A DNA stretch of 52,467 nt from IMG/VR virus record IMGVR_UViG_3300017741_002088, positions 1-52,467 of that record; one strand, written 5' to 3'. Each line of letters begins with the position of its first letter. The stretch's first letter is position 1. The notes beneath the pieces are model-generated. The model was not told the DNA's origin. It saw only the letters and a list, made by a program, of their open reading frames with translations, and searched no databases. This DNA comes from a virus. Its lineage: Duplodnaviria; Caudoviricetes. Both the position numbers and the translations under genes were made by a program. Of the stretch, positions 6,986-52,467 are shown in pieces.

Positions 6986-7501
6986 ATGGATAATCATGTA
7001 TTCGTTGATGCTTATTTCACTAACAATGAAAGAAGCGTTGTAGAGACAATTTGGTATTCGGAAAGCGAAGATGTTTACAGATCTCATTCTATTGTTGCTG
7101 AAGAAAGTGAAGCAGATTGGATCAAACTATTAGAAACAGTTTCGTTGGATGATTTACACGAACGAACTTATAAAAAGATCGCAGAAGCAAACGAAGAATA
7201 TAAAGAAACTCTAATTGACATTGCAAATAACGATGGTAATGGATGGATCGCCTATAAAGACGACATAAACAGGGATGCTTTAAAAGTGCTCATGAACGTT
7301 ATTTTCGATGAAAACTTATCTGAATCAGATGGTGATGCTAATAAAGAAAAACTGTTTTTGTATAAAATGGAATTCTTTGAAAGAGATTTTGTTAAGAAGT
7401 CAACCAACAAAGAACTGAAACGAAATCTCAGAAAAGCAAAGTCTATGATCGAAGCAACGCAAATTGCTTGTCTTTTATATAATGAATCAGAGTTTTCGTA
7501 A
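6986..7501 (+). CDS. Hypothetical protein
   Basis: 171 aa ORF ending the + strand run. Confidence 0.6.
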   Translation: MDNHVFVDAYFTNNERSVVETIWYSESEDVYRSHSIVAEESEADWIKLLETVSLDDLHERTYKKIAEANEEYKETLIDIANNDGNGWIAYKDDINRDALKVLMNVIFDENLSESDGDANKEKLFLYKMEFFERDFVKKSTNKELKRNLRKAKSMIEATQIACLLYNESEFS

Positions 7502-8674: not shown

Positions 8675-9431
8675 CTTCGAATTCCTTATTTACTTGATGA
8701 ATGAAATGTGCTCCATCAGTGTATTTTCTGACTTTTGCGTCGAGAATATAATTCCAAGATATACCTATGTCTATCATAGGAATATCATATTTCTCAATTA
8801 TGTAGGAAAAGAATGCCTCATTATTAGGTGTCCAAACTCGGGAAACTTGTTCAGGATATAGGTTATCTTCACATGCCTCTTTATACACCTCAAGGCAACT
8901 TTCGAATCTACCTATCCAATCAAACCTCTTTATAGATTCCTTAGACCCTAACACCACTCCTGTGTTTGCAACCTTCTCAGTTCCTGATAAATCATCAAGT
9001 AAAAGCATAGACTTTTTCAAAGCGCATTTAACCCATACACTCATGGGATGAAAATTATCGTCCTCGAGTTCCCACCTGAAATTTTTCTTATTGAATGCTC
9101 TATGTACATTATAAACACACATCTTAGTTGTATCAAAGTTTTCGAAAATGTTGATGTTAGTTTTTGGGATCACATCAAGATCTAAGTATAACACTTCATC
9201 ATATTCTTGTGAGAGTTCTTGCATCTTTATAAGTTTATAAAACTGAATATCGGCATAGGTTGTAACATCGGGAGTATAAACCATGTAATCAGCATTTGTA
9301 AATTTTGCATAATCACTTTGCCTTTTCTCCAGTTCACCTCTGTGCCTTTTAAATTGACTCTCTTTGTATGGAGTAACAGAATCATGAACTTCTGTTATGT
9401 CGTTCCAGACACTATATACTATTCTTTTCAT
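8661..9431 (-). CDS. Glycosyltransferase-like protein (GT-A fold)
   Basis: LYLDLDV (DxD), NTGV, NNE, WN, H-VNK; AGGAG RBS before ATG at 9431. Confidence 0.7.
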   Translation of the reverse strand: MKRIVYSVWNDITEVHDSVTPYKESQFKRHRGELEKRQSDYAKFTNADYMVYTPDVTTYADIQFYKLIKMQELSQEYDEVLYLDLDVIPKTNINIFENFDTTKMCVYNVHRAFNKKNFRWELEDDNFHPMSVWVKCALKKSMLLLDDLSGTEKVANTGVVLGSKESIKRFDWIGRFESCLEVYKEACEDNLYPEQVSRVWTPNNEAFFSYIIEKYDIPMIDIGISWNYILDAKVRKYTDGAHFIHQVNKEFEVGLR

Positions 9432-10329
9432 ACCACTCCTTGATGTAGTCAAATCTTTTATTTACTACGTGTACAAACTCACTTCCTTTCGCTACATAAG
9501 GGAATCTTTCATTGAGTATGAAATGTTGCTTTCGTTCAAGTTTGTTGAGTTGAACTTCTTTTTGTTGCATCTTATAACTATACAATGTCTCGTTATCATA
9601 CCCAAACAGTGACTGAATGTACGGTGGCCAACCACCATTTACTTCGGTTACAAGTTCTTTCATCGTAGATAAGTCAAGATCAAATTCTCCAAAGTAATCT
9701 AACTTTTTTATTTGCTCAGAACTTGCTCCAACAATTCCTGTGTTGTATACATCATTATCACCAGAGAAACCCTCGTCAAGAAGCAATGCTCTTGCGTTCC
9801 ACCATTTTGCTCGTGGACTTCTTATAGAATTGGTCCTACCTTTCTCATCATACTTTTTACGCATTTCAGCAAAGAATGCTGGTTCTAATCCTTCAAGGTA
9901 ATTTTTAGGATCTTTCTCATGATTGACTCTACAAAGTATTCCTGAATCAAAATCCCACTCATCGAAAACATTACATTTTGTTAACGGAACCACATCAAAA
10001 TCCAAGTAAAGGATCTGATCATAAGATTTAGAGTATTCTACCATCAACCAATGTTTGTAAAAATTGATTATATCATACTCTGATATCCAAGGTTTATCTT
10101 CAAACCAGTCTTTAAAATGAGCATAGTGAGTACCATACCCAACAAACCTATATTCAACTCCGATGGACTCAGCATACTTTTTTTGCACGCTGATTAACCA
10201 GTCCTGATATTTAAGCATTAGGTTTGTAGTTTCTTTTGTTTTGAAATTACTCCACTCATCATCAGAATGATCTTTATCTATCGTAGAGTCTGAAATATTG
10301 ATGTATGTTGAATAAATTAATCGTTTCAT
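9412..10329 (-). CDS. Glycosyltransferase-like protein (GT-A fold), paralogue of the neighbouring gene
   Basis: LYLDFDV, NTGIV, DNE, HVVNK; same MKR.IYS-type start as 8661-9431. Confidence 0.7.
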   Translation of the reverse strand: MKRLIYSTYINISDSTIDKDHSDDEWSNFKTKETTNLMLKYQDWLISVQKKYAESIGVEYRFVGYGTHYAHFKDWFEDKPWISEYDIINFYKHWLMVEYSKSYDQILYLDFDVVPLTKCNVFDEWDFDSGILCRVNHEKDPKNYLEGLEPAFFAEMRKKYDEKGRTNSIRSPRAKWWNARALLLDEGFSGDNDVYNTGIVGASSEQIKKLDYFGEFDLDLSTMKELVTEVNGGWPPYIQSLFGYDNETLYSYKMQQKEVQLNKLERKQHFILNERFPYVAKGSEFVHVVNKRFDYIKEWYEKNSI

Positions 10330-10967
10330 CGAGCAATCACCATGTACCGATCCCACTCTCCTATTTTCAATGTGCCTTTATAAAGTATTTTCATCTTCGG
10401 CAATGTTTCTATGAAATGATCAACAGATGTGTGACAGTTAATATGACTGTCTACATCTACCATATTATTAGACTGCAAAGCAACAATCATATTTTCATTT
10501 TTCATCGACAAGACGCTAAAAAGATCTTCGTGGTCTATGTGTTCACATGCTGTACAAATTACGATTTTTTTCTCGTGGTTTCTTTTCTTATCTTCAAATA
10601 ATTCTAATCCATCCATAGCATCTTCATATTTTATGTTACTATGAACTCTGAGTTTTTTAGCAATCTTAATACAGACATCATCCAACTCGAAATTTATTAT
10701 CTCTTTGTCCCACCCATCCTCTACTAAAATGTGTGACATCAACCCATACCAAGACCCAATAATTAAAATCGAATTGTGATTATCTTCATAAAAAGGTTTG
10801 AGTTCTCTAGACAACCATTCTTTACAAGCGATCTGGCCAGTTGAGAAAGAATCAGTAATGTCTTTGATACGGAATAAATCGTAGTCAGGATCATATGCAG
10901 ATTTTTCAAATATGAATCTGAATATGTTCATGATCTTATCAAAGTATAATGGTGTCATGTATTTCAT
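10326..10967 (-). CDS. Class I SAM-dependent methyltransferase-like protein (start uncertain)
   Basis: LIIGSWYG motif I, FELD, TACEH, LQSNN, HINC. Confidence 0.65.
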   Translation of the reverse strand: MKYMTPLYFDKIMNIFRFIFEKSAYDPDYDLFRIKDITDSFSTGQIACKEWLSRELKPFYEDNHNSILIIGSWYGLMSHILVEDGWDKEIINFELDDVCIKIAKKLRVHSNIKYEDAMDGLELFEDKKRNHEKKIVICTACEHIDHEDLFSVLSMKNENMIVALQSNNMVDVDSHINCHTSVDHFIETLPKMKILYKGTLKIGEWDRYMVIAR

Positions 10968-11490
10968 TCTCAAAAGTCCCATGTTCAAGTTTTTGATCCC
11001 AGATATAACGATCCATCCCCTTATATTTTCGAGTGTTGTAGTCTATATTTTTTGCAAAAATGTCCCAATAATTTGTATTCTTTCCGACAGTCCATGTCAT
11101 AATTGAACTGTTTAACATCGTTTCATAGGCATGAGTTTCCCAATACTTATCTTCTTTCCAATAGTCACAAACGAAATGCGGAACATCCCAGTTTATGTTT
11201 TCTAGTGAAGGGAAAGGAGAACTAATAATATCGATATCGAGATCAAACATGACGCACCGAGAACCATGTATAAAACTATCTCCAAATCCTGGTCTGAAAG
11301 CATGTAATTTATTCCACCACTTAGCGAGTTTCGGTTTATTAGGAATTGGAATACAGTCTATTATAACGTTTTCTGGATCTTCAGTAAAGCAATAAATTGG
11401 ATAATCTGTGTATTTTCTCAAACTTACTGCTTGTTGGTTTACGTCTTGTGCTGTATATTTCTTCCCGTGCTTCAATAATATAATGTTCAT
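10939..11490 (-). CDS. Glycosyltransferase-like protein
   Basis: K.GKKY, F/YCFTED, WWNKL, FDLD (DxD), NSSIM.W, G.DRYI motifs of phage GT-like proteins. Confidence 0.65.
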   Translation of the reverse strand: MNIILLKHGKKYTAQDVNQQAVSLRKYTDYPIYCFTEDPENVIIDCIPIPNKPKLAKWWNKLHAFRPGFGDSFIHGSRCVMFDLDIDIISSPFPSLENINWDVPHFVCDYWKEDKYWETHAYETMLNSSIMTWTVGKNTNYWDIFAKNIDYNTRKYKGMDRYIWDQKLEHGTFENEIHDTIIL

Positions 11491-29835: not shown

Positions 29836-30229
29836 AATTATTGAGTGGAACCCAAGTGCAATGCTTGAGATTACACTAAACGAACCAGATGATTTTCTAA
29901 AAGTTCGTGAGACACTAACACGTATCGGTGTTGCGTCCCGAAAAGACAAGAAGTTATACCAGTCCTGTCATATTCTACATAAGCAGGGAAGATATTTCAT
30001 TGTACATTTTAAAGAGTTATTTCTCTTAGATGGAAAGAAGTCTAATCTTGAAGAGAATGATATCGCACGTCGTAATACTATCGCCACTCTTATGAGTGAT
30101 TGGGGATTGATTAGCATAGAAGGTTCGACTACAGAACCGCTTGCACCAATGCGACAAATCAAAATTATTCCTTACAAAGAAAAGCAGGAATGGGAGTTAT
30201 GTCCCAAGTATAACATTGGTAATAAATGA
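29822..30229 (+). CDS. regA: Translational repressor RegA
   Basis: PDDFLKVRETLTRIG, LYQSCHILHKQGRY.IVHFKELF. Confidence 0.95.
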   Translation: MEQNKIIEWNPSAMLEITLNEPDDFLKVRETLTRIGVASRKDKKLYQSCHILHKQGRYFIVHFKELFLLDGKKSNLEENDIARRNTIATLMSDWGLISIEGSTTEPLAPMRQIKIIPYKEKQEWELCPKYNIGNK

Positions 30230-30866
30230 TATCCCATTTATCGAACTTGATATCGATATAGATTATGACAAACTATTAAGTGAATGGAAAGCAGTAGAAG
30301 ATAAATATTCTTTTGCCAAATATAAAACCAAATATTGGCAGGTCAGAAGAAAATATGCTAAAGCATGGTCAGGAATCTCATTAGTAGGATCAGATGGTGA
30401 CTTATACTCTGATATGTACGAAGGTGATTCTTCTGCGGCATCTAAGACTGAACTGAGAGATGTTTGTCCATATTATTATGAACTGATATCAAAACTTGGA
30501 GGAGATGGTTTTAGAGCAAGGATTATGAGGATTTCACCAAAGGAATCCTTGGTATGGCATAGTCATGTACAAGAACACAGGCAACCCGAATGGCAACTAA
30601 CTTGCCAGATTCCGATTGTCATGCCAAATGATTTTGAATATTGTGTTTTACATAAAGATGAATTTAGATGGTGGAAAAGGTTTCATAGACCAGATTGGTT
30701 AAAGAGAGTCTGGCGAAAAAAACTTGATGTTGGTAAGGCATACATTTTTAATTCTTACCACTATCATAACGTGTACAACTACAGTAATGAATACAGGGTT
30801 ACTTTGATGTTGTACTTAGATTTAAGAGATCCAAAAGTTCGCGATTTGATTGAAAGAAGTTTATAA
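30216..30866 (+). CDS. Asp/Asn beta-hydroxylase-like 2OG-Fe(II) oxygenase (start uncertain)
   Basis: R.RIM...P.....H.H, GKAY.FN...H.V.N.S...R..L pattern. Confidence 0.6.
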   Translation: MVINDIPFIELDIDIDYDKLLSEWKAVEDKYSFAKYKTKYWQVRRKYAKAWSGISLVGSDGDLYSDMYEGDSSAASKTELRDVCPYYYELISKLGGDGFRARIMRISPKESLVWHSHVQEHRQPEWQLTCQIPIVMPNDFEYCVLHKDEFRWWKRFHRPDWLKRVWRKKLDVGKAYIFNSYHYHNVYNYSNEYRVTLMLYLDLRDPKVRDLIERSL

Positions 30867-38078: not shown

Positions 38079-38225
38079 ATGGATTATGATACAACTGAAG
38101 AAATCAAATTTTTAGGTATGACTATGACTGAGTTTCAAACTACTCCGATTCATAGGTATGATGATGAAGAAGATTGTAATTGTTATGGTTGCGCAACAAT
38201 GAGGCATCGTTGTTTAAATGACTAA
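38079..38225 (+). CDS. Small hypothetical protein (48 aa, CxCxxC)
   Basis: GGAGG RBS; MDYDTTEE...DCNCYGCATMRHRCLND. Confidence 0.45.
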   Translation: MDYDTTEEIKFLGMTMTEFQTTPIHRYDDEEDCNCYGCATMRHRCLND

Positions 38226-38898
38226 ACTTCCCACATCGGCATTTATGCGTCAACTTGGAAAGTATGTTTATTGCTTCACTAAGACTGATAACTACAAAGA
38301 TGCATACTATGGCGGAAAAAGCGGATTTACAGCAACTGGAACTCGTTGCTTAGATCACATTAAAGACAAGGGATATGACTACGATGATATCATGATCATC
38401 GCTAGGAATCTCGAAACATTTGACAATCGACCAGAAGAGTTATTAGAATCCTGGTTGATTATGACTGAAGATTTTGATGACAATAAAAAAAGTGGTTCAC
38501 ACAAGGAGTGTTTTATTATGGGTAAGTTAAGTTTTCTTTTTTCACAGCACGAAGCATTGCAACGTAATATGTTGACAGAGGGTCCACGCTATGTCCTCGA
38601 TAATGAAGATGCGCTTTCAAATCGTAATTCTGTCACTGGCACCAAATCTAGTTACAAAATTGGTTCTTCTGCAATCAAGTCTTGTTACATCAATATTGAA
38701 TTGAATTCAACTAAAGAGTTTCCAGTTGTTCATTTTAGTAATAATAAAGATGTGAAAGAGTTTCAAAAGATAGCACAACCTGCATTTGCTGAAGAATATC
38801 CTGACCTTGAGGTTCGTAAGAACACATATGGGTTTGAAGTAGACACTGAATCATTTGAACAAGCACTTGAGATGTGGGATGAGTTTCACAGATCGTAG
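38218..38898 (+). CDS. Hypothetical protein, possible GIY-YIG-like nuclease domain
   Basis: YVY...YYGGK...R...H...E..LI...N spacing. Confidence 0.4.
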   Translation: MTKLPTSAFMRQLGKYVYCFTKTDNYKDAYYGGKSGFTATGTRCLDHIKDKGYDYDDIMIIARNLETFDNRPEELLESWLIMTEDFDDNKKSGSHKECFIMGKLSFLFSQHEALQRNMLTEGPRYVLDNEDALSNRNSVTGTKSSYKIGSSAIKSCYINIELNSTKEFPVVHFSNNKDVKEFQKIAQPAFAEEYPDLEVRKNTYGFEVDTESFEQALEMWDEFHRS

Positions 38899-38907
38899 AA
38901 AAATTCC

Positions 38908-38936
38908 TTTGCATAAATACCAGATTATGATATAAT
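38908..38936 (+). promoter_or_regulatory. Promoter of the modification operon
   Basis: TTTGCA-N17-TATAAT. Confidence 0.65.
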
Positions 38937-38955
38937 ACTAATACAGGAGAATTGT

Positions 38956-40311
38956 ATGAGTAATTTCGAAGTAACAACAGTCGATGGCGTGAGAACTATA
39001 ACCGCCAAAAAGAAATTTGATTGTGAGCATCTACTCAATGAGTTTATGACTGACGATCATTATGACATCGTGATTGATGGCGATACAGATTTTTATGCTC
39101 CACCTATTGCAACAATTGATGGTGCATTCAATAATGAATCTAATCTAGGATTTCGTTTTCGTAAAAACGTTTTCACCAAAGAAGAAATGGAAGGTGCGTA
39201 TGAAGGTTTGTTAGATGCAGCGACATCAACAAACAACCGTGGCACTTCAACTGGTCAAATTGGTGTACAACGTCAAGGAAACCGCGATTGGGTTTATCCG
39301 TGGCAGTTTGATATTATGAAAATGATCCAGCATGGACGTCTTGATGATAAAACTCCACAGGATGTGATGGATGAATATGTTGCTAAGTGGGGTGATCTAG
39401 AGTTTCATTGGGATAAACGTGGTGCTCTTTGGCATCGTGGTAAAATCACCCAAGCAGGATATGACTATGATAATTTCTTTATGAATCAATTCGAATCAGG
39501 ATTGACTTCAGAAAAGATCGCTGAACTTAAAACGTTCATCCCAGATACTATGTACACCGCAAGTATCTACTCAGGAATCGCAGGTTTCTATGATCGTTAT
39601 CCTCGGATCCCATATGGTCGTGCAACTAACTTTACCGAATCAAATATGGATAAGTTTGCGAAAGCATACCCATATATGCGTAGACTGAATGCTTTGTTTG
39701 CTGAACTTGTTCCTCAACGATATGCTAAACAAAAGAAAGTCGCTGAGTCAATTGACAAACGATTCGTTGTTGCTGAGGATACTGCATTCTCAACTATTAC
39801 AGTCAACAAGAACTATCGTACGACTGCGCATCGAGATGGAGCAAACTATACTCCTGGATTCTCTAACCTGTCAACAGTGACTAAAGGTGACATCGGTTGG
39901 GAAGGTGGACTGTTTGTTCTTCCGGAATATCGTGTTGCTATCAACTTGCGTCCTGGTGATGCTCTATTGGTTGATAACGCTGGAATCATTCATGGTAATA
40001 CTGAAATGATCCCACCATCAGGTTTGGACATTGAAGATATGGAACGCATCTCTATGGTGTCATATATGCGTGACGGTATGCAGTCTCTTCGCTCAAAAGA
40101 ATATGAAGATGCTCGTCGCGAATATGTTACCGATCGTTCACGCAACAAAGATCACCCACTATGGCGTGAACGTTGGAATGGTGTGTCCGAAGGTATGTGG
40201 GCAGAAGATGAATGGTTAGAATTTCTTAATTCTAAAAACTTAACAGACGAAGATGGTGTAGTCGGGACTGCAAAAACTGATTCTCCCAACTCATTAGAGG
40301 AATTCTTCTAA
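38956..40311 (+). CDS. TET/JBP-family 2OG-Fe(II) dioxygenase
   Basis: FSTITVNKNYRT.AHRD (HxD), GG.FVLPEYRVA..L.PGD.LL, HGNT, RIS.VSY.R. Confidence 0.8.
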   Translation: MSNFEVTTVDGVRTITAKKKFDCEHLLNEFMTDDHYDIVIDGDTDFYAPPIATIDGAFNNESNLGFRFRKNVFTKEEMEGAYEGLLDAATSTNNRGTSTGQIGVQRQGNRDWVYPWQFDIMKMIQHGRLDDKTPQDVMDEYVAKWGDLEFHWDKRGALWHRGKITQAGYDYDNFFMNQFESGLTSEKIAELKTFIPDTMYTASIYSGIAGFYDRYPRIPYGRATNFTESNMDKFAKAYPYMRRLNALFAELVPQRYAKQKKVAESIDKRFVVAEDTAFSTITVNKNYRTTAHRDGANYTPGFSNLSTVTKGDIGWEGGLFVLPEYRVAINLRPGDALLVDNAGIIHGNTEMIPPSGLDIEDMERISMVSYMRDGMQSLRSKEYEDARREYVTDRSRNKDHPLWRERWNGVSEGMWAEDEWLEFLNSKNLTDEDGVVGTAKTDSPNSLEEFF

Positions 40312-40907
40312 TGTGCGCAGTCCTTGGGGTCTCGGGAAAGATCGACAGTCAAGTGATCCGTCGACTTTTTCTCGAGTCCCAGATTCGTGGTAGGCATGCC
40401 ACAGGAGTATCGTACTACAAGGAAGGCAAAGTTCATACGATAAAAGAACCTTTGCCTGCCGAGAAGTTTTTAGAGAAACACGACCCAAAAGATTGGTACG
40501 AGGGAGATGAAATTGTTATGATTGGACACTGTAGATATTCTACATCTGATCTTGAATTCAATCAACCCATCGCTAATGATCAATCAAGCATTGTACATAA
40601 CGGTGTGATCTCACAAGAGATGCCTGACCGTTGGAAACAACTGTACAATATTGATTGTGAAACTCGTAACGATACGGAACTTCTTTTCCATAGTAGTCCA
40701 GAAGATTGGCCAGATGCATCTATTGCTGCAGTTTTTCTTACAGGAAAAGAAATGACGTGGACTCGTAATGGAAAACGACCTTTATGGTTTACTTCTCTTG
40801 AAGAATGTGATATAATAACTTCTACAAATGACATTGCAGTTCGTGCTGGTTTATCGAACTCAGTCAAGACATATTATGACGGAAACGATCTACAAAATGA
40901 TTATTGA
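40311..40907 (+). CDS. Class II (Ntn) glutamine amidotransferase domain protein
   Basis: N-terminal MC, RG.HATG, GHCRYST, NQP, HNGVI, ND(T)E, RPL. Confidence 0.85.
   Translation: MCAVLGVSGKIDSQVIRRLFLESQIRGRHATGVSYYKEGKVHTIKEPLPAEKFLEKHDPKDWYEGDEIVMIGHCRYSTSDLEFNQPIANDQSSIVHNGVISQEMPDRWKQLYNIDCETRNDTELLFHSSPEDWPDASIAAVFLTGKEMTWTRNGKRPLWFTSLEECDIITSTNDIAVRAGLSNSVKTYYDGNDLQNDY
40788..40816 (+). promoter_or_regulatory. Internal promoter within the amidotransferase gene
   Basis: TTTACT-N17-TATAAT. Confidence 0.65.
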
Positions 40908-41553
40908 GAAAATTGATCAACAAGAACTTGAGGATACTCTTGCTCGTAAATTAGAAGAGAATGATGGCGCCAAACTAAACAACATGAATGGTTTGTATCA
41001 TTTGAAACAAACATGTTATGAGTGGGGCATGGAAAACAACTGGCAATCTCCCAGAGCGCAGCAGTGGGTAGCACGCAATGATGAAGGTACTATCATGGGC
41101 GGCACATTTATCACTGTCACCTCGCGCAAACCAGTTCATGTCACCTTTCGCCACATCTTTCTATTTGAAGAAGCAAGAGGTCATGGTGTCGCAGAGACGC
41201 TGTACAATTGGCGGTATCGCTGGGTCATTGAAAACACCCAGTGTAGACGTGTCAGATTGTTTGCGAATAAACCTGCGACACCATGGCATAATAAATGCGG
41301 AATGCGTTTCTTAGGGATGAATAAAGCAAAACAACCTTTTACATATCTGCCTTTATTCGATTGCCCATCTATGCGTGACTATGGAGCAAAACTAGATTCA
41401 ATTGGTCCACGAGCAGCAATGGATATGGTAGAACCTGAAGTCACTAAGCAAGTCGAAAAGATTGTGAGTAAAGGTGGTCGTTGGTACACTCAAGAAGAAT
41501 TCAAGAGTGAATGGGGATCTGAACTAGAAGAAAGGTTTGAACCCTTTGCTTGA
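40897..41553 (+). CDS. GNAT-like acyltransferase
   Basis: EEARGHGVA..L acetyl-CoA motif A; N..A..W..KCGM motif B. Confidence 0.65.
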   Translation: MIIEKIDQQELEDTLARKLEENDGAKLNNMNGLYHLKQTCYEWGMENNWQSPRAQQWVARNDEGTIMGGTFITVTSRKPVHVTFRHIFLFEEARGHGVAETLYNWRYRWVIENTQCRRVRLFANKPATPWHNKCGMRFLGMNKAKQPFTYLPLFDCPSMRDYGAKLDSIGPRAAMDMVEPEVTKQVEKIVSKGGRWYTQEEFKSEWGSELEERFEPFA

Positions 41554-42538
41554 TCGTCGCGAATTGTTTGTTCGATGGTATGGTTGGTCTCTTGAATACA
41601 AAGATGTTGATCCTGCAGTTTGGTTGACCAATTACCTGCATAAACGATACGAACATAATGAAGAACAACGATACTGGTTGGCGTGGTTATATGGAAACAC
41701 ATATTACCTGCCAACAAGTTGGGTCTTGATGAATGAGTTTCCTGACTTTGAACTTGCGACTTATGATAGAATAAAAGACTGGAACGACCACAACTATACG
41801 CGACTTCGATATCAAACTGACACCAAATGGTCAAAAGGTCATTTGCCTGAGATGTTTAAATCCTATAAAGAGATGATCGGTAACAAGACCCAAAAGGAAT
41901 TCTTTGATGGGTTTGATGGTTTCGATGATCTCTTTGATCATGTAAAAACTAAACAATTCAAATTCGGTAGATACTCAACTTGGTTTTATTTGCAACATCT
42001 AGAGGGAACCTGCGGCATGCGCCACATCAACCCGAAGACTTTGTTGTTAAATGATCGTAGTGGAAGTCGAAGTCATCGAAATGGATTGTGTATGGCATTG
42101 AAAAAAGATGACTGGTATGATAAAAAATTAGACAAAAGTCAGATAGATATATTAGAAGGAATGGGTGCTGATATCTTAACCGAGATGTCAGATCGTTTTC
42201 CGAAGCATAAGAATGAAGTGAATGCATTTACTATGGAAACTGCACTTTGTTCTTTTAAGAAGATCTTTCGTAAACATCACGGAAGATATCTCGGATACTA
42301 TCTTGATCGCCAAGCAGAGGAGATCACTAAAGTGTCTAAAGATGGTTGGAACGGTATTGAGTGGAATGTACTTTGGCAAGCAAGGTCAGAATCACTCGAT
42401 AAAAGATTAACATCTAAGGGTGGCATTATCAAAGACAAATTTGATACATTTGTCGATACTGGATCACTAGATAGGATAGAATGGATGTTCACAGATATCC
42501 AGAAAAGTCCTTCACCTTTAGACAATTTTATGATATAA
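41537..42538 (+). CDS. Amino acid:DNA transferase-like protein (aGPT-Pplase2 family, HhH glycosylase-like fold)
   Basis: D.DP, EQRYW.AWLYG.TY, FGRYS.WFYLQ, ET.LC.FKK, RY.GYY.DR; genomic context. Confidence 0.7.
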   Translation: MNPLLDRRELFVRWYGWSLEYKDVDPAVWLTNYLHKRYEHNEEQRYWLAWLYGNTYYLPTSWVLMNEFPDFELATYDRIKDWNDHNYTRLRYQTDTKWSKGHLPEMFKSYKEMIGNKTQKEFFDGFDGFDDLFDHVKTKQFKFGRYSTWFYLQHLEGTCGMRHINPKTLLLNDRSGSRSHRNGLCMALKKDDWYDKKLDKSQIDILEGMGADILTEMSDRFPKHKNEVNAFTMETALCSFKKIFRKHHGRYLGYYLDRQAEEITKVSKDGWNGIEWNVLWQARSESLDKRLTSKGGIIKDKFDTFVDTGSLDRIEWMFTDIQKSPSPLDNFMI

Positions 42539-42545
42539 TGATACT

Positions 42546-43094
42546 ATGAATAAATTACTCGCAATAATTGGTGCTCCAGGAACTGGTAAGACAACCCTCG
42601 TTCGTGAGTGGATGAAGTCACGAAAATGGTCAAAGGATAAACCAGTTGATCTTCTCGACACTCATGTATCGGACGATATTCGGTTGCTTGGTAAATATGA
42701 GCATGATTCTCTCTTCAGCGGTACAGATAAACTGTCTATGGCAGTACAACCGAAAGCAGTAGAATATCTAGACAACCCATCCCCTGTAACTATATTTGAA
42801 GGCGATCGACTGACTTCGATTAAATTCTTTGAAGCAGCGCAGTCAAAAGGATTTGAAATTAAAATCATTCAACTCACTGTTCCCGATGAAGTTAGAGAAC
42901 AACGTTACAAAGAACGTGGTTCAGAACAAAACCCAACTTGGTTGAATGGCAGATTGACAAAAGTTAAAAATGTTTCAAATGCCTTTTCCGGAAACCCTCT
43001 GTTCGATGAACCGAGCATAGTAGAGGAGTGTGAGCATAAAACTCCTGAAGATACAAAATCAATCATAACAATCATTGAGGATTTTATAAAATGA
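42546..43094 (+). CDS. P-loop nucleotide kinase of the type found in base-hypermodification loci
   Basis: GAPGTGKTT, LGKY, F.GTD.LSM, EGDRL, R..ERGS.Q. Confidence 0.75.
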   Translation: MNKLLAIIGAPGTGKTTLVREWMKSRKWSKDKPVDLLDTHVSDDIRLLGKYEHDSLFSGTDKLSMAVQPKAVEYLDNPSPVTIFEGDRLTSIKFFEAAQSKGFEIKIIQLTVPDEVREQRYKERGSEQNPTWLNGRLTKVKNVSNAFSGNPLFDEPSIVEECEHKTPEDTKSIITIIEDFIK

Positions 43095-43900
43095 AGATAG
43101 CGATTATTGGACATGGGTTTGTTGGCAAAGCAGTAGATTATGGATTCTCCCATCCGGAGATCCAAAAGATTATTATCGATCCAATTTATGGGTCTAAGAT
43201 TGATAAACGAATTAAAAACTGCCAGTTTATATTTGTTAGTGTACCAACTCCTATGGGAGATGATGGTACGATTGATGACTCTATCCTTCGTGAAGTAATT
43301 AAAGACATCGAGAAGTATAGTCACAACTCGATTATCATTGTCAAAAGCACAGTCATCCCTGAAGTGATCGCTAACCTATCAGATCGTATCGTTTACAATC
43401 CAGAGTTTCTCACAGAGAAAAGCGCAAACGAACAGTTTGTAAATCCTGTGTTTCATATTCTAGGAGGGCATCCTGCTGACTGTACGATGGTCGCAGACTT
43501 CTACGATAAGTATTCGCTATGTAATCACACAGATTTTTATTGTATGACAATTGAAGAAGCATCCTTCACTAAGTATGCCATCAATTGTTTTCTAGCAACT
43601 AAGGTTCTTTTCTTTAATCAGTTGTATGATGCTGCATTAAAAGAAAACAATGTAAACTTCAGCGTTGTCGCAAAAACCGTTGGAGCAGACCCACGCATAA
43701 CACCATCCCATACAAAGGTGCCAGGATTTGATGGTAAACAGGGTTTCGGTGGTGCGTGTTTCCCCAAAGATGTGTCAGCATTTCTTGCTGCATATCCAGA
43801 GATGGGAATCCTTGATTTCGTAAAGAAAACTAATAATGACTATCGGAATCAATATGAAAAGGATTCTCGTGAAATAGAACAAAACATAGATTTTGCTTAA
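43091..43900 (+). CDS. UDP-glucose/GDP-mannose dehydrogenase family protein
   Basis: GHGFVG, VPTP, KST, NPEFL, K...N.FLA.K, GFGGACFPKD. Confidence 0.9.
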   Translation: MKIAIIGHGFVGKAVDYGFSHPEIQKIIIDPIYGSKIDKRIKNCQFIFVSVPTPMGDDGTIDDSILREVIKDIEKYSHNSIIIVKSTVIPEVIANLSDRIVYNPEFLTEKSANEQFVNPVFHILGGHPADCTMVADFYDKYSLCNHTDFYCMTIEEASFTKYAINCFLATKVLFFNQLYDAALKENNVNFSVVAKTVGADPRITPSHTKVPGFDGKQGFGGACFPKDVSAFLAAYPEMGILDFVKKTNNDYRNQYEKDSREIEQNIDFA

Positions 43901-43912
43901 TGGAGGCATTAA

Positions 43913-44074
43913 ATGTCAGCAACTCAAGAATGGATTAAAGAGCAGTTCACTAAAGATTCACCAAGAATCATTACTGAATATTCGTTACAAAAACAAGTCG
44001 ACGATCTTTTAACTCGAGTAAAACAACTTGAAACTGATATGGCGTATAGTGTGAAACCAGAGGAAAGAACTTGA
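43913..44074 (+). CDS. Small hypothetical coiled-coil protein (53 aa, not in ORF track)
   Basis: GGAGG RBS; MSATQEWIKEQF...; overlaps next start. Confidence 0.6.
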   Translation: MSATQEWIKEQFTKDSPRIITEYSLQKQVDDLLTRVKQLETDMAYSVKPEERT

Positions 44075-44817
44075 GTATTATAATCACGGGATCCGATGGG
44101 TTTATCGGATCCCATTTAACTAAGCATTTCGAAGCAAAAGACATTGAAGTTATACCGTGGGACATCAAGAATGGTGGCACCCAAGATATTCATAACCTGT
44201 TCATTCCCCCAGATGTCACCTTTGTTATTCACCTTGCAGCAATCGCTGACGTTCGAAGAAGTATTCGTGAACCAGATATCTATTGGGAACAAAATGTTCT
44301 AGGAACTAAACATGTTCAAGAGAAATGTGCACAAAAAGATATTCCTTTGTTATATGCTTCATCCTCTTGCGTCCATGCGTGGGGCAAAAGTCCATACGGT
44401 ATGTCAAAGAAAGTAAATGAATTGACTGCGCAACCTGAACAAATTGGAATGAGGTTTACTACAGTCTATGGTGATGGTGCGCGAGACTCTATGTTCATAG
44501 GTAAGTTACAAAGGGGTGAGATAGAATATGTGACAACACACATTCGTGACTTCATCCATGTTTCCGATGTGATTCAAGCGATTGAATTGTTGATGGATAA
44601 CTATGCAACGCTTGAAGAATATTCTTATAACATAGGAACAGGAGTTGGTAATGAAGTTCGTAAACTCGGTGAACTAAATAATTTTTATGGACCAGTCAAA
44701 TCAGGTCATGAATGCGAAGCACTTGATAACACTGCAGACAATTCAGCAATAAGAAAACTAGGATGGAAACAAACAGTTTTTGTTGACGAATATATCAATA
44801 AAGGGTTTACTTTATAG
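44071..44817 (+). CDS. NAD-dependent epimerase/dehydratase
   Basis: TGSDGFIG, HLAA, ASSS, YGMSK, RDFIHV.D. Confidence 0.9.
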   Translation: MSIIITGSDGFIGSHLTKHFEAKDIEVIPWDIKNGGTQDIHNLFIPPDVTFVIHLAAIADVRRSIREPDIYWEQNVLGTKHVQEKCAQKDIPLLYASSSCVHAWGKSPYGMSKKVNELTAQPEQIGMRFTTVYGDGARDSMFIGKLQRGEIEYVTTHIRDFIHVSDVIQAIELLMDNYATLEEYSYNIGTGVGNEVRKLGELNNFYGPVKSGHECEALDNTADNSAIRKLGWKQTVFVDEYINKGFTL

Positions 44818-46466: not shown

Positions 46467-46898
46467 ATGAAAATCCTCATCTTTGGGTTGCCAGGAGCAG
46501 GTAAAACTTATTTGTCAGAGCGTTTGCAAAAACATTTTAAGTGCGCTTGGTATAATGGTGATGAAATTAGAAAGATGGCAGACGACTGGGAATTCAGTCC
46601 TGAAGGTCGTCTGAGGCAAGCATCACGGATGAGAAACCTTGCTAATTTCGAAAAAGATTCTGGTCGGTGGGTGCTATGTGATTTCATATGCCCCACCAAT
46701 CATTATCGAGATTTATTTGATGCTGATATTTCTATATGGGTAGACACAATAAGAGAGGGAAGATTTGATGATACAAACAAAATGTTTGAGTTCCCTTCTA
46801 TGGTTGACTATAAAATAGCAAAGTTTTTATCTGATGAAGAAATAAAAAAACTAGCAAATATGATTATAAATGAAAGTGAAGAAGATGTCAGCATTTGA
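46467..46898 (+). CDS. Adenylylsulfate (APS) kinase-like protein
   Basis: GLPGAGKT, GD.IR, FS.EGR..Q, DFICP, FE.P. Confidence 0.75.
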   Translation: MKILIFGLPGAGKTYLSERLQKHFKCAWYNGDEIRKMADDWEFSPEGRLRQASRMRNLANFEKDSGRWVLCDFICPTNHYRDLFDADISIWVDTIREGRFDDTNKMFEFPSMVDYKIAKFLSDEEIKKLANMIINESEEDVSI

Positions 46899-47301
46899 TT
46901 ATTTAAACCCAACGTCCCTGATGATTGGTAGATACCAACCATGGCATGAAGGTCATTTAGAACTGTTTCAACGTGCGTACGAATTAGCAGGTCAGGTATT
47001 GATTCTCGTTCGGGAAGTTCCTGAATCACGAGAAGCGAATAGTCGCGTTCCAGGGCAAGATGATAATCCCTTTTCACCTTCAGAAGTTTTCGCTATGATC
47101 ACACAAAATTTATCAGAAAATGGGTTTACTTTTGATGAAGATTACGTTATAATGAGTGCTCCTAATATCGTTGACATTAGTTATGGACGCGATGTTGGAT
47201 ACACATTCACTGAGCATGATCTCGGTGATCTTAATAAAATTAGTGCAACTGACATCAGGGCACAGATGAGAGCAGAGGGTAAACTTGCAAACAAATCTTG
47301 A
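46885..47301 (+). CDS. HIGH-family nucleotidyltransferase (cytidyltransferase-like)
   Basis: GRYQPWHEGH, NPF, I.YGRDVGY, ISAT.IR. Confidence 0.8.
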   Translation: MSAFDYLNPTSLMIGRYQPWHEGHLELFQRAYELAGQVLILVREVPESREANSRVPGQDDNPFSPSEVFAMITQNLSENGFTFDEDYVIMSAPNIVDISYGRDVGYTFTEHDLGDLNKISATDIRAQMRAEGKLANKS

Positions 47302-49303: not shown

Positions 49304-49437
49304 TGAATAAAATTTTGAGAAGACTTGGATTGAAAGACGACTATGGTTATTGCGATATGTCCATTGTTGGGTTTATTGTTATATGGTCGTTTTTTCTTTA
49401 TGGTGTTTATATTGCGATCGGAGACTTAATTAAATGA
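49303..49437 (+). CDS. Small membrane protein (44 aa, not in ORF track)
   Basis: MNKILRRLGLKDDYGYCD followed by a hydrophobic helix; coupled at both ends. Confidence 0.55.
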   Translation: MNKILRRLGLKDDYGYCDMSIVGFIVIWSFFLYGVYIAIGDLIK

Positions 49438-50099
49438 ATGTTAGATTAATCAGTTATTCACAAACAGCGGAGAACCTACATGTCGGTGAAGATATCCAAG
49501 AACTCATTGCGTATTGTGCCCGTGTCTCGAACCCCTCGAACCAAACTAACCAAGAAACGTCCGAACGTTTATTATCCTATCTCGCAAAACACAAGCACTG
49601 GTCGCCTTTCGAGATGGTGTCTGCTTGCTTAGAGATTGAAACGACTCGTGATATTGCTCGTCAAATCCTTAGGCATCGTTCGTTTTCATTTCAGGAGTTT
49701 AGTCAGAGATATGCTAATCCTGTAGAAGATTTAGATTATGTTATGAGGGAAGCGCGACTACAAGATACGAAAAATCGTCAAAACAGTATTGTTACTGATG
49801 ATGCTGATTTACAACTAGAATGGTATAAGCAACAAGCAGAAGTTCAACTTGCCTCTAAAAAAGCATATCAATGGGCGATTGAAAATGGTATTGCTAAAGA
49901 GCAAGCACGTGCGGTGTTGCCCGAAGGTATGATGGGATCACGACTTTATATGAATGGAACCATCAGGTCTTGGATTCATTTTATTGAATTGCGCAGTGCT
50001 AATGGCACACAAAAAGAATGTCAGGATGTTGCCATTGCTTGCGCAAAAGCGATTACTGAGATATTCCCTCTTGCTCAAAAGTTCTTGGAGACAGAATAA
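49434..50099 (+). CDS. thyX: Flavin-dependent thymidylate synthase ThyX
   Basis: ARVS, H.SPFE, RHRSFSFQEFSQRY, E.AR.VLP, LR....Q.E. Confidence 0.95.
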   Translation: MNVRLISYSQTAENLHVGEDIQELIAYCARVSNPSNQTNQETSERLLSYLAKHKHWSPFEMVSACLEIETTRDIARQILRHRSFSFQEFSQRYANPVEDLDYVMREARLQDTKNRQNSIVTDDADLQLEWYKQQAEVQLASKKAYQWAIENGIAKEQARAVLPEGMMGSRLYMNGTIRSWIHFIELRSANGTQKECQDVAIACAKAITEIFPLAQKFLETE

Positions 50100-51825: not shown

Positions 51826-52467
51826 ATGAGATTTTTAATCGCTGCAGCAATTGCAGTAATGTCTTGGGTCAGCGTCGCTCAGGCAGAACCACTCAAAGTT
51901 GGATTCGTTTATGTTGGTCCAGTCGGTGATCATGGTTGGACATATATGCATGATATCGGTCGTCAAGCAGCAGTAGAAAAGTTTGGTGACTCTATCGAAA
52001 CAATCTTTGTTGAATCAGTACCAGAAGGTCCAGATGCAGAACGTGTAATGCGTGATATGATTTCGCAGGGTGCGGATATGATCTTTACGACATCGTTTGG
52101 TTATATGGAGCAAACTCTACGAGTCGCAAAAAATAATCCTGATGTGATTTTTGAGCATGCAACTGGTTATAAAACTGCACCAAACGTATCGGTCTATTCA
52201 TCACGTTTCTATGAAGGTCGTTATGTACAAGGTGTAATTGCTGGTCATATGTCAAAGACAGGCAAAGCAGGTTACATTGCATCGTTTCCGATTCCAGAAG
52301 TGATTCGTGGTATCAATGCTTTTTATCTTGGTGCGACAGCAGTAAATCCTGCGTTTGATATTGACGTTGTATGGGTCAATACTTGGTATGATCCTGGCAA
52401 AGAAGCAGATGCTGCGAAAGTATTGATTGCTGGTGGTGCAGATATCATCACGCAACATACTGATTCA
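51826..52467 (+). CDS. BMP-family ABC transporter substrate-binding protein (nucleoside/purine type), 3'-truncated, not in ORF track
   Basis: AAGGAG RBS; signal peptide; KVGFVYVGPVGDHGWTY.HD, TTSFGYM, HATGY, RFYEGRY, PIPEVIRGINAF, W.NTWYDP.KE, QHTDS. Confidence 0.9.
   Translation, partial: MRFLIAAAIAVMSWVSVAQAEPLKVGFVYVGPVGDHGWTYMHDIGRQAAVEKFGDSIETIFVESVPEGPDAERVMRDMISQGADMIFTTSFGYMEQTLRVAKNNPDVIFEHATGYKTAPNVSVYSSRFYEGRYVQGVIAGHMSKTGKAGYIASFPIPEVIRGINAFYLGATAVNPAFDIDVVWVNTWYDPGKEADAAKVLIAGGADIITQHTDS

Follow-up and report, generated by a model that had tools for sequence, protein, structure and literature searches.

The described systems closest to the locus analysed here are phage clusters that begin with a 5-methylpyrimidine dioxygenase (5mYOX) of the TET/JBP family (Lee et al. 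2021, PMC8989533, Fig. 2 sequences 22–25; Burke 2021; the 'ParB-dependent' clade C1 of O'Toole et al. 2026, PMC13229309). In the available portions of these papers, the TET/JBP enzyme replaces a dUMP hydroxymethylase; a P-loop kinase, an amino acid:DNA transferase (AADT) and a glutamine amidotransferase (GATase) are clustered with it, without a C5-methyltransferase, in T4-like marine phages with hsp20 and redoxin-type neighbours, features that the present locus shares. Lee et al. report TET_JBP contigs with a kinase and an AADT and without a dUMP hydroxymethylase, and note that genes for a glutaminotransferase and an amidoligase of unknown function lie nearby. O'Toole et al. demonstrate T-dioxygenase activity of phage 5mYOX enzymes, which convert T to 5hmU in vivo and in vitro, and describe one subclass that is 'consistently linked' with GATases, P-loop kinases and AADTs and requires a ParB activator. 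TET-initiated post-replicative thymidine hypermodification and its link to kinases, AADTs and GATases are in print in these three papers; the same portions report no cassette product or GATase function, and their supplementary datasets may list similar contigs.

Other routes share parts of this logic. Salmonella phage ViI and Pseudomonas phage M6 synthesise 5-hmdU prior to replication, and a 5-hmdU DNA kinase (5-HMUDK) and then an AADT (formerly aGPT-Pplase2), with serine or glycine as the nucleophile, precede PLP or radical-SAM tailoring; this kinase-then-AADT order resembles the present locus, but TET, GATase and GNAT are lacking. Both enzymes work on 5-hmdU in DNA, a Cys and a Glu of the AADT are essential, and the nucleophiles of characterised AADTs are amino acids or putrescine (Gly, Ser, Glu or putrescine) (PMC8989533). 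The PaMx11 pathway, which likewise has a kinase, an AADT and a GNAT acetyltransferase, reaches 5-acetylaminomethyl-dU through a Gly:DNA transferase (gp46), an FAD lyase (gp47), an acetyltransferase (gp48) that acts on 5-aminomethyl-dU, and a kinase (gp49) (PMC8989533). Its 5-hmdU, unlike that proposed here, comes from a nucleotide-level hydroxymethylase, and a thymidylate synthase homologue adjoins its cluster. Base J synthesis (JBP and a glucosyltransferase) and the TET-associated glycosyltransferase (TAGT) cassettes also start with T oxidation in DNA, but continue with glycosylation rather than with a kinase and an AADT.

Composition of the cassette

The window is the entire IMG/VR record IMGVR_UViG_3300017741_002088 (Caudoviricetes; positions 1–52,467), about 30% of a genome. 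The initial annotation had described five contiguous, mostly overlapping genes with intact catalytic motifs. The five co-oriented plus-strand open reading frames are present at 38956–43094, their families hold in profile searches, and the catalytic residues are intact in 5/5 genes. The features discussed are as follows.

38908..38950, + strand: promoter-like site TTTGCA-17-TATAAT with TG, plus an AGGAG ribosome-binding site, 5′ of the TET gene (motif scan; weak)
38956..40311, + strand: TET/JBP-family Fe(II)/2-oxoglutarate 5mYOX, long form, 451 aa (Pfam Tet_JBP, 2.4e-18)
40311..40907, + strand: stand-alone class II (Ntn) glutamine amidotransferase domain, predicted glutaminase subunit, 198 aa (GATase_6, 1.5e-9)
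40876..41553 (ORF opens at 40828), + strand: GNAT-fold acyltransferase, 225 aa from M17, predicted N-acylase of a DNA-borne amine (Acetyltransf_1, 3.5e-7)
41537..42538, + strand: AADT (aGPT-Pplase clade 2), 333 aa (phrog_3271, 3.5e-55)
42546..43094, + strand: P-loop kinase of the 5-HMUDK family, 182 aa (Ploopntkinase3, 3.3e-19)
43091..43900, + strand: short UDP-glucose/GDP-mannose dehydrogenase-like protein, 269 aa, without the C-terminal domain (Pfam UDPG_MGDP_dh central domain 2e-15, N-terminal domain 2.1e-14)
44071..44817, + strand: NAD-dependent sugar-nucleotide epimerase/dehydratase-like protein, 248 aa (Pfam Epimerase, 1.3e-25)
49434..50099, + strand: ThyX flavin-dependent thymidylate synthase (Pfam Thy1, 2.6e-43)

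The TET stop codon runs into the GATase start codon by a single base (TAATG), the GATase and GNAT frames overlap, the last 17 nt of GNAT also belong to AADT, 7 nt separate AADT from kinase, and the kinase overlaps the next gene by 4 nt. Promoter-like sites in the region number 33, with 32.3 expected by chance. The dehydrogenase-like gene, whose start overlaps the kinase stop, is missing from the closest locus of the same type (L019), where uvsX follows the kinase, and its membership of the pathway is doubtful. The epimerase-like gene is probably a syntenic neighbour outside the cassette chemistry, with orthologues in the same position beside both glycosyltransferase-type and AADT-type cassettes.

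In the TET protein, H292, D294, H346 and R364 are invariant among 39 aligned homologues, and the AlphaFold model (pLDDT 85.3) finds human TET2 (7ne6_A, E 7.5e-11) as its best solved fold match. The product is predicted to be a thymine-to-5hmU oxidase acting on DNA; its 451 aa, beyond the ~290–300 aa of the characterised phage T-dioxygenases (O'Toole et al. 2026, PMC13229309), count against the proposed T oxidation. For the GATase, 1950 of 2101 candidates are homologues at E ≤ 1e-3. Residues C2, R26, R75, N97, G98 and D121, invariant in 35 aligned homologues, align with C1, R26, R73, N98-G99 and D123 of E. coli GlmS (a weak profile match, E 0.12), and the alignments show that the residues binding the alpha-amino and alpha-carboxylate groups of free glutamine are kept.

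The GNAT reaches 30.9 bits for Acetyltransf_1, whose cut-off is 20.7, and likely starts at 40876, because homologues begin at M17. R101, G102, G104 and A106 are invariant in the homologue alignment, and Foldseek matches of its model (pLDDT 91.1) are amine N-acetyltransferases such as SpeG. It is related to the GNAT-like family of related cassettes ('c11'; hhalign probability 95%, E 2.9e-8). Its likeness to the PaMx11 5-NmdU acetyltransferase (28% identity over 81 aa, E 8e-4) is only generic, and the two are not orthologous.

The AADT has no Pfam match even at E ≤ 10, which counts against the assignment, and is placed through phrog_3271 and through a 57% identical homologue that matches PF18724 'Amino acid:DNA transferase' at 2.9e-20. 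It is ~28% identical to ViI-type aGPT-Pplase2 and 14% identical to M6 gp51, a glycine:DNA transferase like PaMx11 gp46, so that the PaMx11 and window AADTs are distant. E234 and C238 are nevertheless invariant across the window protein, M6 gp51, a ViI-like AADT and Cr30, conserving the essential Cys/Glu pair. The kinase contains the Walker A motif GAPGTGKT and is 27% identical to M6 gp54 (E 9e-5).

As initially annotated, ThyX is encoded in the window, suggesting that the phage makes ordinary dTMP and that thymine enters DNA unmodified. The further claim that the window has no dUMP/dCMP hydroxymethylase or C5-methyltransferase also stands: profile searches of the 52,467-base record found no C5-methyltransferase, ThyA-like hydroxymethylase or ParB_N, a weak absence in ~30% of a genome. 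A complete related genome of 161,882 bp with the cassette has ThyX and no PF00145 or PF00303 match, which argues for T rather than 5mC as the substrate. Among the ORFs scanned in the window there is no FAD enzyme and no glycosyltransferase.

Gene linkage among related viral loci

Of 599 viral stretches picked by pattern matching, 574 carry a relative of the GATase, which puts the number of viral contigs with this gene at 574 or more; the best 80 of the 574 loci were examined for linkage. TET lies directly upstream of the GATase in 77/80, with the 1-nt stop/ATG overlap of the window in 59 of 70 adjacent pairs. The window-type AADT subfamily (55–67% identical to the window's) occurs in 58/80 and the kinase in 53/80; both are present in all 35 loci whose sequence continues for 5 kb or more beyond the GATase, a count that leaves out 2/80 loci whose GATase was missed in ORF picking. 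AADTs of TET cassettes without a GATase are only 27–30% identical to the window's. Across the loci scanned, this subfamily tracks GATase presence strictly and is found only with it.

The gene after the GATase is of two kinds. It encodes an Amidoligase_2 in 55/80 loci and a GNAT-like protein, as in the window, in 17/80; the two never occur together among the 72 loci with either, and the remaining 8/80 are truncated or have neither gene. Three natural fusions were found, two GATase–GNAT-like (P0131, P0132) and one GATase–Amidoligase_2 (P0133), with 0/3 joining GATase to AADT, which points to the GNAT-like protein or amidoligase, rather than the AADT, as a possible GATase partner. TETs 71–80% identical to the window's adjoin TAGT glycosyltransferase cassettes in six loci scanned, three of which (L006, L007, L012) have the TAGT-linked TET at the same pol–uvsX position.

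Predicted GATase–AADT complex and proposed pathway

Complex prediction of the GATase with GNAT and AADT gave a score of 0.86 (runs 0.85, 0.86 and 0.91), the best of three controls reaching 0.00. This score is the model's own confidence, and its calibration (a mark reached by 116/157 solved complexes and 2/215 mismatched pairs) is only a rough guide here, a three-chain job with custom alignments lying outside it. At least 70% of contacts agree between runs, with partner pLDDT of at least 87. All confident contacts are between GATase and AADT; there is no confident GATase–GNAT contact, and replacing the AADT in a control gave a score of 0.00. On the GATase side the contacts include residue 1, beside the nucleophile C2, and residues 24–29, 76–78, 99 and 154–157. 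AADT residues R37, H40, N41 and G273, on the predicted contact side, are invariant in 30 GATase-linked AADTs but not conserved in five other AADTs aligned. The GATase is thus predicted to dock its active-site face onto the AADT.

The cassette very probably encodes a TET-initiated thymidine hypermodification pathway. That this is a five-gene operon for post-replicative thymine hypermodification in a T4-like cyanomyovirus, with a route from T through 5hmU, 5-phosphomethyl-U and 5-aminomethyl-U to an N-acylated base, we consider rather probable; we infer every step from family membership. Ordinary T, supplied via ThyX, would be built in at replication and oxidised in DNA to 5-hydroxymethyluracil by the TET/JBP dioxygenase, and the P-loop kinase would phosphorylate the hydroxymethyl group. 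C238 of the AADT, assisted by E234, would then attack C6 and expel the phosphate to leave an exocyclic methylene, to which the glutaminase seated on the AADT would pass glutamine-derived ammonia, giving 5-aminomethyl-dU. Finally, the GNAT would acylate the primary amine so formed, with 5-acetylaminomethyl-dU as the simplest product. We regard ammonia as the AADT nucleophile as an even call, and name 5-acetylaminomethyl-dU as the exact final base only tentatively.

The ammonia step may be likened to PurF, where glutaminase-derived ammonia displaces pyrophosphate from PRPP. PurF and other class II amidotransferases share with the proposed step an N-terminal-Cys glutaminase whose ammonia displaces a phosphate-type leaving group, and their glutamine-binding residues are common to the window GATase. 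In contrast to PurF, glutaminase and transferase are separate proteins in the window: the 198-aa glutaminase is predicted to pair with a DNA-base transferase that has no relation to phosphoribosyltransferases, and the ammonia would go to a base in duplex DNA. If the proposal holds, PaMx11 would share the 5-aminomethyl-dU intermediate and possibly the end product, but there the amine is unmasked by glycine installation and FAD-enzyme cleavage, whereas the window has TET and a glutaminase.

The pathway could deviate from this scheme at the AADT, which might install a normal amino acid, with the GATase and the next-encoded enzyme tailoring the appendage by glutamine-dependent amidation of a free carboxylate in the amidoligase type, and by acylation coupled some other way in the GNAT-like type. 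A GATase with an ATP-dependent ligase is the classic carboxylate-amidation design, one of the two families directly follows the GATase in 72/80 loci, the natural fusions join exactly these partners, and amino acids or putrescine are the substrates of all characterised AADTs (PMC8989533). The window type, however, lacks an ATP-dependent ligase that could activate a carboxylate for amidation, and the glutaminase would then have no role. Together with the retained binding residues for free glutamine, the predicted seat of the GATase on the AADT and not the GNAT, and the strict pairing of AADT subfamily and GATase, this makes amino acid installation unlikely. The dioxygenase might also be (nearly) inactive without a ParB-type activator, leaving the cassette inert or reliant on a factor from the remaining 70% of the genome. 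Without ParB, the subclass associated with GATase, kinase and AADT yielded just 0.5–1% 5hmU, and some ParB-less clade C1 enzymes had earlier been found inactive (as noted by O'Toole et al. 2026, PMC13229309). A ParB-like gene, 'c6' (profile match to Noc at 1.3e-4; ParB_N matches 8/19 members), lies inside the cassette in 25/80 related loci, and no gene of this kind was found in the window. Yet c6 is also absent from the other 55/80, within the available DNA, and from 17/17 GNAT-type loci; PF02195 finds nothing in the complete genome G001, a weak test because the same search missed divergent c6 copies in the record of L040. That all five genes have stayed intact, closely packed and conserved speaks for selection on function, and we find an inert cassette improbable.

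Still less probable is 5-methylcytosine as the substrate, fed by a C5-cytosine methyltransferase elsewhere in the genome and ending in a hypermodified cytosine. The window covers only ~30% of the genome, and clade A and B phage TETs are described as acting on 5mC from a neighbouring C5-methyltransferase, but searches with PF00145 drew a blank in the window and in five longer related records, a complete genome among them; 5-hmdU is the substrate of the characterised kinases and AADTs (PMC8989533), and just 6% of the 5mYOX pathways surveyed by O'Toole et al. 2026 (PMC13229309) come with a C5-methyltransferase. That the substrate of the cassette is not DNA but free nucleotides, RNA or a small metabolite, as the generic metabolic families of GATase and GNAT and the adjoining sugar-nucleotide genes might suggest, is hardly credible: TET/JBP, AADT and Ploopntkinase3 are each described only as DNA-base enzymes (PMC13229309, PMC8989533), and their strict co-occurrence fits a single DNA pathway.

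The initially proposed mechanism of T oxidation, phosphorylation, displacement by ammonia or an amino acid and GNAT N-acylation thus gains computational support from families, motifs, the complete relative and the predicted docking. Its novelty is narrower than first claimed: the literature consulted held no biochemistry of the combination, but the gene association is already published, and the suggested 5-(acylaminomethyl)pyrimidine has a known example in 5-acetylaminomethyl-dU, made by PaMx11 enzymes by a different route (PMC8989533). The kind of pathway is already described; new are the GATase linkage counts, the alternation of amidoligase and GNAT, the fusions and the predicted GATase–AADT docking. 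Relative to the published 5mYOX clusters, the window lacks the ParB-like activator of clade C1, and its tailoring set consists of the GATase and one divergent GNAT only. In summary, the cassette is best read as a ParB-less, GNAT-type variant of a widespread TET–GATase–(amidoligase or GNAT-like)–AADT–kinase module of aquatic T4-like phages.

The five-gene cassette and its surroundings

The window, whose 52,467 bases make up an estimated ~30% of a genome, encodes a family B DNA polymerase, UvsX/Y/W, RegA, MazG, plastocyanin, Hsp20 and ThyX, together with gp41-, gp44/62-, gp45- and gp46/47-like proteins, and this gene content led us to assign it to a T4-like cyanomyovirus. Between a primase-like gene and uvsX lies a cassette of five genes in one orientation, with neighbours that overlap or almost touch. 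The initial annotation had placed five contiguous genes here, and all of them were found, co-oriented, where it had put them:

38956-40311 (+), TET/JBP dioxygenase (TET), 451 aa; PF12851, 2.4e-18, 66.3 bits (cut-off 34.9)
40311-40907 (+), class II (Ntn) GATase, 198 aa, starting MC, stand-alone; GATase_6, 1.5e-9
40876-41553 (+; the ORF opens at 40828), GNAT acyltransferase; PF00583, 3.5e-7, 30.9 bits (cut-off 20.7)
41537-42538 (+), amino acid:DNA transferase (AADT) resembling ViI-type aGPT-Pplase2; phrog_3271, 3.5e-55
42546-43094 (+), 5-hmdU DNA kinase; PF18751, 3.3e-19, 69.6 bits (cut-off 27)

The families and motifs that had been claimed for these genes were likewise borne out by the Pfam/phrog matches, those of the first gene included and, for the fourth, through phrog_3271 and Pfam matches of its homologues, and by invariant catalytic residues. 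Across 35 homologues of the GATase, C2, R26, R75, N97, G98 and D121 do not vary, and they align with their equivalents in E. coli GlmS, to which the GATase profile had just a weak match in a PDB search (E 0.12); in GlmS we take them to be the catalytic Cys, the Asn-Gly oxyanion hole and the Arg/Asp residues that bind free glutamine. The window AADT has no Pfam match at E ≤ 10. PF18724, 'Amino acid:DNA transferase', is matched by a 57% identical homologue at the related locus L020 (2.9e-20) and by the L102 representative (5.9e-21) of an AADT cluster whose members are 55-67% identical to the window protein, and tblastn with the latter recovers ViI-type proteins annotated aGPT-Pplase2. Its E234 and C238 (METALCSFKK) are invariant in comparison with M6 gp51, a ViI-like AADT, the AADT of Cr30 and two metagenomic AADTs, and also across 30 members of its subfamily; the active-site Cys and neighbouring Glu of AADTs were shown to be essential by Lee et al. 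2021 (PMC8989533). The kinase has the Walker A motif GAPGTGKT in its translation and is 27% identical to M6 gp54 (E 9e-5). The cassette is real, intact and conserved, and its predicted function is thymidine hypermodification.

A UDP-glucose dehydrogenase-like gene at 43091-43900 (+), whose 269-aa product is without the C-terminal UDP-binding domain, overlaps the kinase stop with its start. This gene and an epimerase gene, both located after the kinase, were considered as pathway members but not taken up, since both are absent from L019, the closest locus of the same type, the epimerase is also a syntenic neighbour of unrelated cassette types, and a Pfam scan of the window ORFs found no glycosyltransferase. 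The two genes are probably bystanders.

Elsewhere in the window, two proteins are encoded at 46467-47301 (+), one an APS-kinase-like P-loop protein and the other cytidylyltransferase-like, between uvsX and the gp41-like helicase gene; in the relatives L006, L009 and L012, a cytidylyltransferase-like gene lies inside the TET cassette, just before uvsX. Five minus-strand ORFs at 7487-11490 (-) sit amid a plus-strand region and have negative GC skew; one encodes a radical SAM protein (5.4e-11), and no Pfam family matches the remaining four. An Asp/Asn beta-hydroxylase-like 2OG oxygenase gene at 30141-30866 (+; 1.3e-9) adjoins regA and is followed by a short riboflavin-kinase-like ORF, and a Bmp/PnrA-like ABC substrate-binding protein (3.3e-43) at 51826-52467 (+) is cut by the record end.

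Spread of the module and the gene after the GATase

A search with the single GATase sequence found no close relatives, so that an alignment query was needed; homologues number 1950 at E ≤ 1e-3 (2101 candidates), and an alignment-based scan with 599 pattern matches showed that at least 574 viral contigs encode a GATase relative. The module is widespread among aquatic T4-like phages. In 50,697 phage records, megablast with the cassette gave no match, and no GATase in the isolate collection is more than 27% identical to that of the window, the matches (~25% identical) being in PaP3-like and marine podoviruses in a different context. Nor is any AADT there more than 30% identical to the window AADT.

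For a locus survey, the ORFs of the best 80 of the at least 574 GATase contigs were clustered and the clusters matched to the window proteins. TET is present in 77 of these 80 loci, an AADT of the window subfamily (55-67% identical) in 58 and the kinase in 53. Where at least 5 kb follows the GATase, AADT and kinase are both present in 35/35 loci, a count that leaves out two loci whose GATase ORF was missed; the shortfalls in AADT and kinase reflect contig ends. Of 70 pairs in which TET and GATase are adjacent, 59 share the arrangement of the window, a one-base overlap of the TET stop with the GATase ATG. In TET cassettes without a GATase, the AADTs are just 27-30% identical to the window AADT.

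The gene after the GATase belongs to one of two families, never both, in 72 of the best 80 of the at least 574 loci, the other 8 being truncated or having neither: a 292-aa family in 55 loci, with Amidoligase_2 in 16 of the 18 members scanned (best 2.6e-8), and a 226-aa GNAT-like family in 17. The amidoligase profile has no match in the PDB, and amidoligase-type cassettes often carry a second GNAT afterwards. The window GNAT falls within the GNAT-like family as a divergent member (hhalign probability 95%, E 2.9e-8); kinship with the amidoligase family was rejected at an hhalign probability of 0.1%. L019, a truncated contig, has the GNAT-AADT-kinase order of the window at 73-84% identity, with uvsX directly next. 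At L027:2187-3365, and also in L028, an IMP dehydrogenase/GMP reductase-like gene (9.6e-71) is located between the GNAT-like gene and the AADT.

The motif R/Q-x-x-G-x-G/A binds the acyl-CoA pyrophosphate in GNATs, and R101-G102-x-G104-x-A106 is invariant among the homologues of the window GNAT. The closest solved folds to its model (pLDDT 91.1) are amine N-acetyltransferases, and among at least 500 PDB matches at E ≤ 0.001 all those listed are N-acetyltransferases or unassigned GNAT-family proteins. It has just 10 close clusters, and among 1.84 billion proteins the joint family has 166 representatives (E ≤ 1e-3). Tblastn of the GNAT against phage isolate records gave no match at this threshold; with PaMx11 gp48 the GNAT shares 28% identity over 81 aa and is not an orthologue.

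The dioxygenase, ParB and the substrate

In TET, the HxD...H Fe(II) triad and the 2-oxoglutarate Arg are H292, D294, H346 and R364, invariant in 39 sequences. TET2, CcTet, NgTET1 and CMD1 are the closest solved folds to its AlphaFold model (pLDDT 85.3), which aligns over its full length to human TET2 (E 7.5e-11), so that the long N-terminus belongs to the TET fold and brings no extra domain. We rejected the N-terminal 210 aa as a fused ParB-like activator, as they have no Pfam match at E ≤ 1 and the whole model fits TET2. The phage T-dioxygenases characterised so far are ~290-300 aa long, compared to 451 aa in the window, and some ParB-less members of the GATase-linked clade were reported inactive in one earlier screen, according to O'Toole et al. 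2026 (PMC13229309).

In the 52-kb record (~30% of the genome), neither a PF02195 match to a ParB-like activator nor, at E ≤ 1, a match to the profile of c6, a ParB-like family of related cassettes, was found. A 434-aa c6 gene lies inside the cassette in 25 of the best 80 of the at least 574 loci; in the PDB the c6 profile matches Noc (1.3e-4), 8 of 19 members have a ParB_N match, and these genes tie the module to the ParB-linked subclass of O'Toole et al. Examples at L042:2391-3695 and L029:8025-9341 have a central ParB-like domain with DGNxRxxAA. The c6 N-terminus looks GIY-YIG-like by eye (YVYG...MYIG), with Pfam GIY-YIG matching just 1 of 19 members (E 0.21), and c6 copies are too divergent for PF02195 detection in genome scans.

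Immediately upstream of TET, a 226-aa ORF at 38218-38898 (+) reaches significance with no family; its start is GIY-YIG-like by eye (YVYCF...YYGGKSG), unsupported by Pfam, and a 38% identical copy occupies the same place in L008. It was rejected as a ParB or other activator on the lack of a significant family and of a c6 match in the window.

The Pfam search also bore out that ThyX is encoded in the window, with no C5-methyltransferase or ThyA-like enzyme found there. In five longer module-bearing records, one of them a complete genome of 161,882 bp with terminal repeats, PF00145 and PF00303 had no match in any, and ThyX was present in four, including the complete genome. These gene contents suggest that thymine in DNA, rather than 5mC, is the likely substrate of TET. 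The kinase and AADT of known systems are specific for 5-hmdU in the account of Lee et al. 2021 (PMC8989533), who used SP8 DNA as a 5-hmdU DNA.

TETs 71-80% identical to that of the window (L005-L015, e.g. L006:7001-8356) carry wholly different downstream modules and in most of these loci keep the pol-mazG-primase...uvsX position. Examples of such modules combine a TET-associated glycosyltransferase, a 2OG oxygenase and a cytidylyltransferase; a UDP-galactopyranose mutase and a 348-aa protein without a known family; or an FkbM methyltransferase, a distant AADT, a gene resembling inositol-1-phosphate synthase and a kinase. The TET site has the look of a hotspot at which DNA modification modules are exchanged. 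The annotation 'SNF2 DNA repair protein' given to the TET/JBP homologues of Caulobacter phage Cr30 (L001, 5998-7326) and Stenotrophomonas phage DLP_6 (L002, 5995-7341) seems mistaken; downstream of TET, Cr30 has an AADT (PF18724, 1.3e-52), a gene weakly resembling TAGT and an inositol-1-phosphate synthase.

The partner of the GATase and the proposed chemistry

The evidence on the partner of the GATase disagrees, with natural fusions pointing to the GNAT-like and amidoligase proteins and the complex prediction to the AADT. Three of the four longer GATase homologues found are fusions, two with a GNAT-like domain (P0131 and P0132, about 440 aa) and one with an Amidoligase_2 domain (P0133, 527 aa). 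The predicted complex of GATase, GNAT and AADT scored 0.86 (runs 0.85, 0.86 and 0.91), compared to 0.00 for the best of three controls. When the tool was calibrated, 116 of the 157 complexes with solved structures reached this mark, as did 2 of the 215 mismatched pairs, a calibration that is rough for a three-chain job. The runs agree in at least 70% of contacts, with partner pLDDT of at least 87. The confident contacts are exclusively between GATase and AADT, and with the AADT replaced (control score 0.00) no interface between GATase and GNAT came out with confidence. On the GATase, the predicted interface involves invariant columns at residue 1, next to the nucleophile, at 24-29, 76-78 and 99, and at 154-157, a family-specific stretch; on the AADT it covers 36-43 and 272-275 and involves R37, H40, N41 and G273, which are invariant in 30 GATase-linked AADTs and not conserved in the other AADTs aligned.

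We propose that NH3, rather than an amino acid, is the nucleophile on 5-phosphomethyl-dU. The GATase would feed NH3 to a methylene intermediate on the AADT to give 5-aminomethyl-dU, and the enzyme of the next gene would acylate this amine, the GNAT type with acyl-CoA as the acyl donor and the amidoligase type with ATP and a carboxylate. Lee et al. 2021 give 5-aminomethyl-dU a nominal mass of 257 u, and its acetyl derivative would come to 299 u. The main rival is that the AADT adds an ordinary amino acid and that the GATase acts with its fused partner, for example in carboxylate amidation; this suits the amidoligase-type cassettes, but the window type has no ATP-dependent ligase, which would leave the glutaminase without a role. 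The NH3 reading fits all five genes, each keeping the usual chemistry of its family, and under it the fusions would point to several enzymes assembled together, not to ammonia being channelled to the GNAT. It is possible, if somewhat doubtful as a whole, that GATase and AADT form a two-subunit, glutamine-dependent 'ammonia:DNA transferase', that its amine product is a hub diversified by swapping the next gene and that the 451-aa TET is ParB-independent. Such an enzyme would put 5-aminomethyl-dU straight into duplex DNA, a PurF-like chemistry on a nucleobase; from this hub, a GNAT would lead to N-acyl derivatives and an ATP-dependent amidoligase to aminoacyl or peptidyl derivatives.

The cassette had been put forward as a new pathway. 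Three published accounts show that the pathway type is already known, and what is new is the ParB-less variant with tailoring by GATase and GNAT. Lee et al. 2021 (PMC8989533) established that 5-hmdU in DNA is acted on first by the kinase and then by the AADT, described metavirome contigs with a TET_JBP gene instead of a dUMP hydroxymethylase, and listed as 'functions not yet known' the amidoligase and glutaminotransferase neighbours. TET contigs with P-loop kinase, aG/PT-PPlase, epimerase and heat-shock or redoxin genes are noted by Burke et al. 2021 (PMC8256090), and O'Toole et al. 2026 (PMC13229309) demonstrate phage T-dioxygenases and describe a ParB-dependent 5mYOX subclass 'consistently linked' with GATases, P-loop kinases and AADTs. 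The window shares these three linked genes with that subclass, but the subclass has a co-located ParB-like gene and none was found in the window (~30% of the genome). The passages covered in the three papers give no product and no GATase role, and a targeted literature search on the latter yielded no further paper. In the PaMx11 pathway, a GNAT acetylates 5-aminomethyl-dU (Lee et al. 2021, PMC8989533). That route to 5-AcNmdU differs in using a glycine-installing AADT and an FAD-dependent lyase that frees the amine, whereas Pfam found no FAD/DAO-type oxidoreductase among the 56 window ORFs scanned, and the five-gene cassette leaves no space for one.

Thymidine hypermodifications shield the DNA of phages against nucleases of the host, and the enzymes that make them are under development for writing chemical groups onto DNA. 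The specific hypothesis offered here is that the glutaminase is a DNA transferase subunit supplying NH3; if true, this would be an enzyme activity new for DNA and would allow an amine handle to be introduced into DNA in a single step. The swap point after the amine, with either a GNAT or an amidoligase, would account for part of the combinatorial diversity of these modifications.
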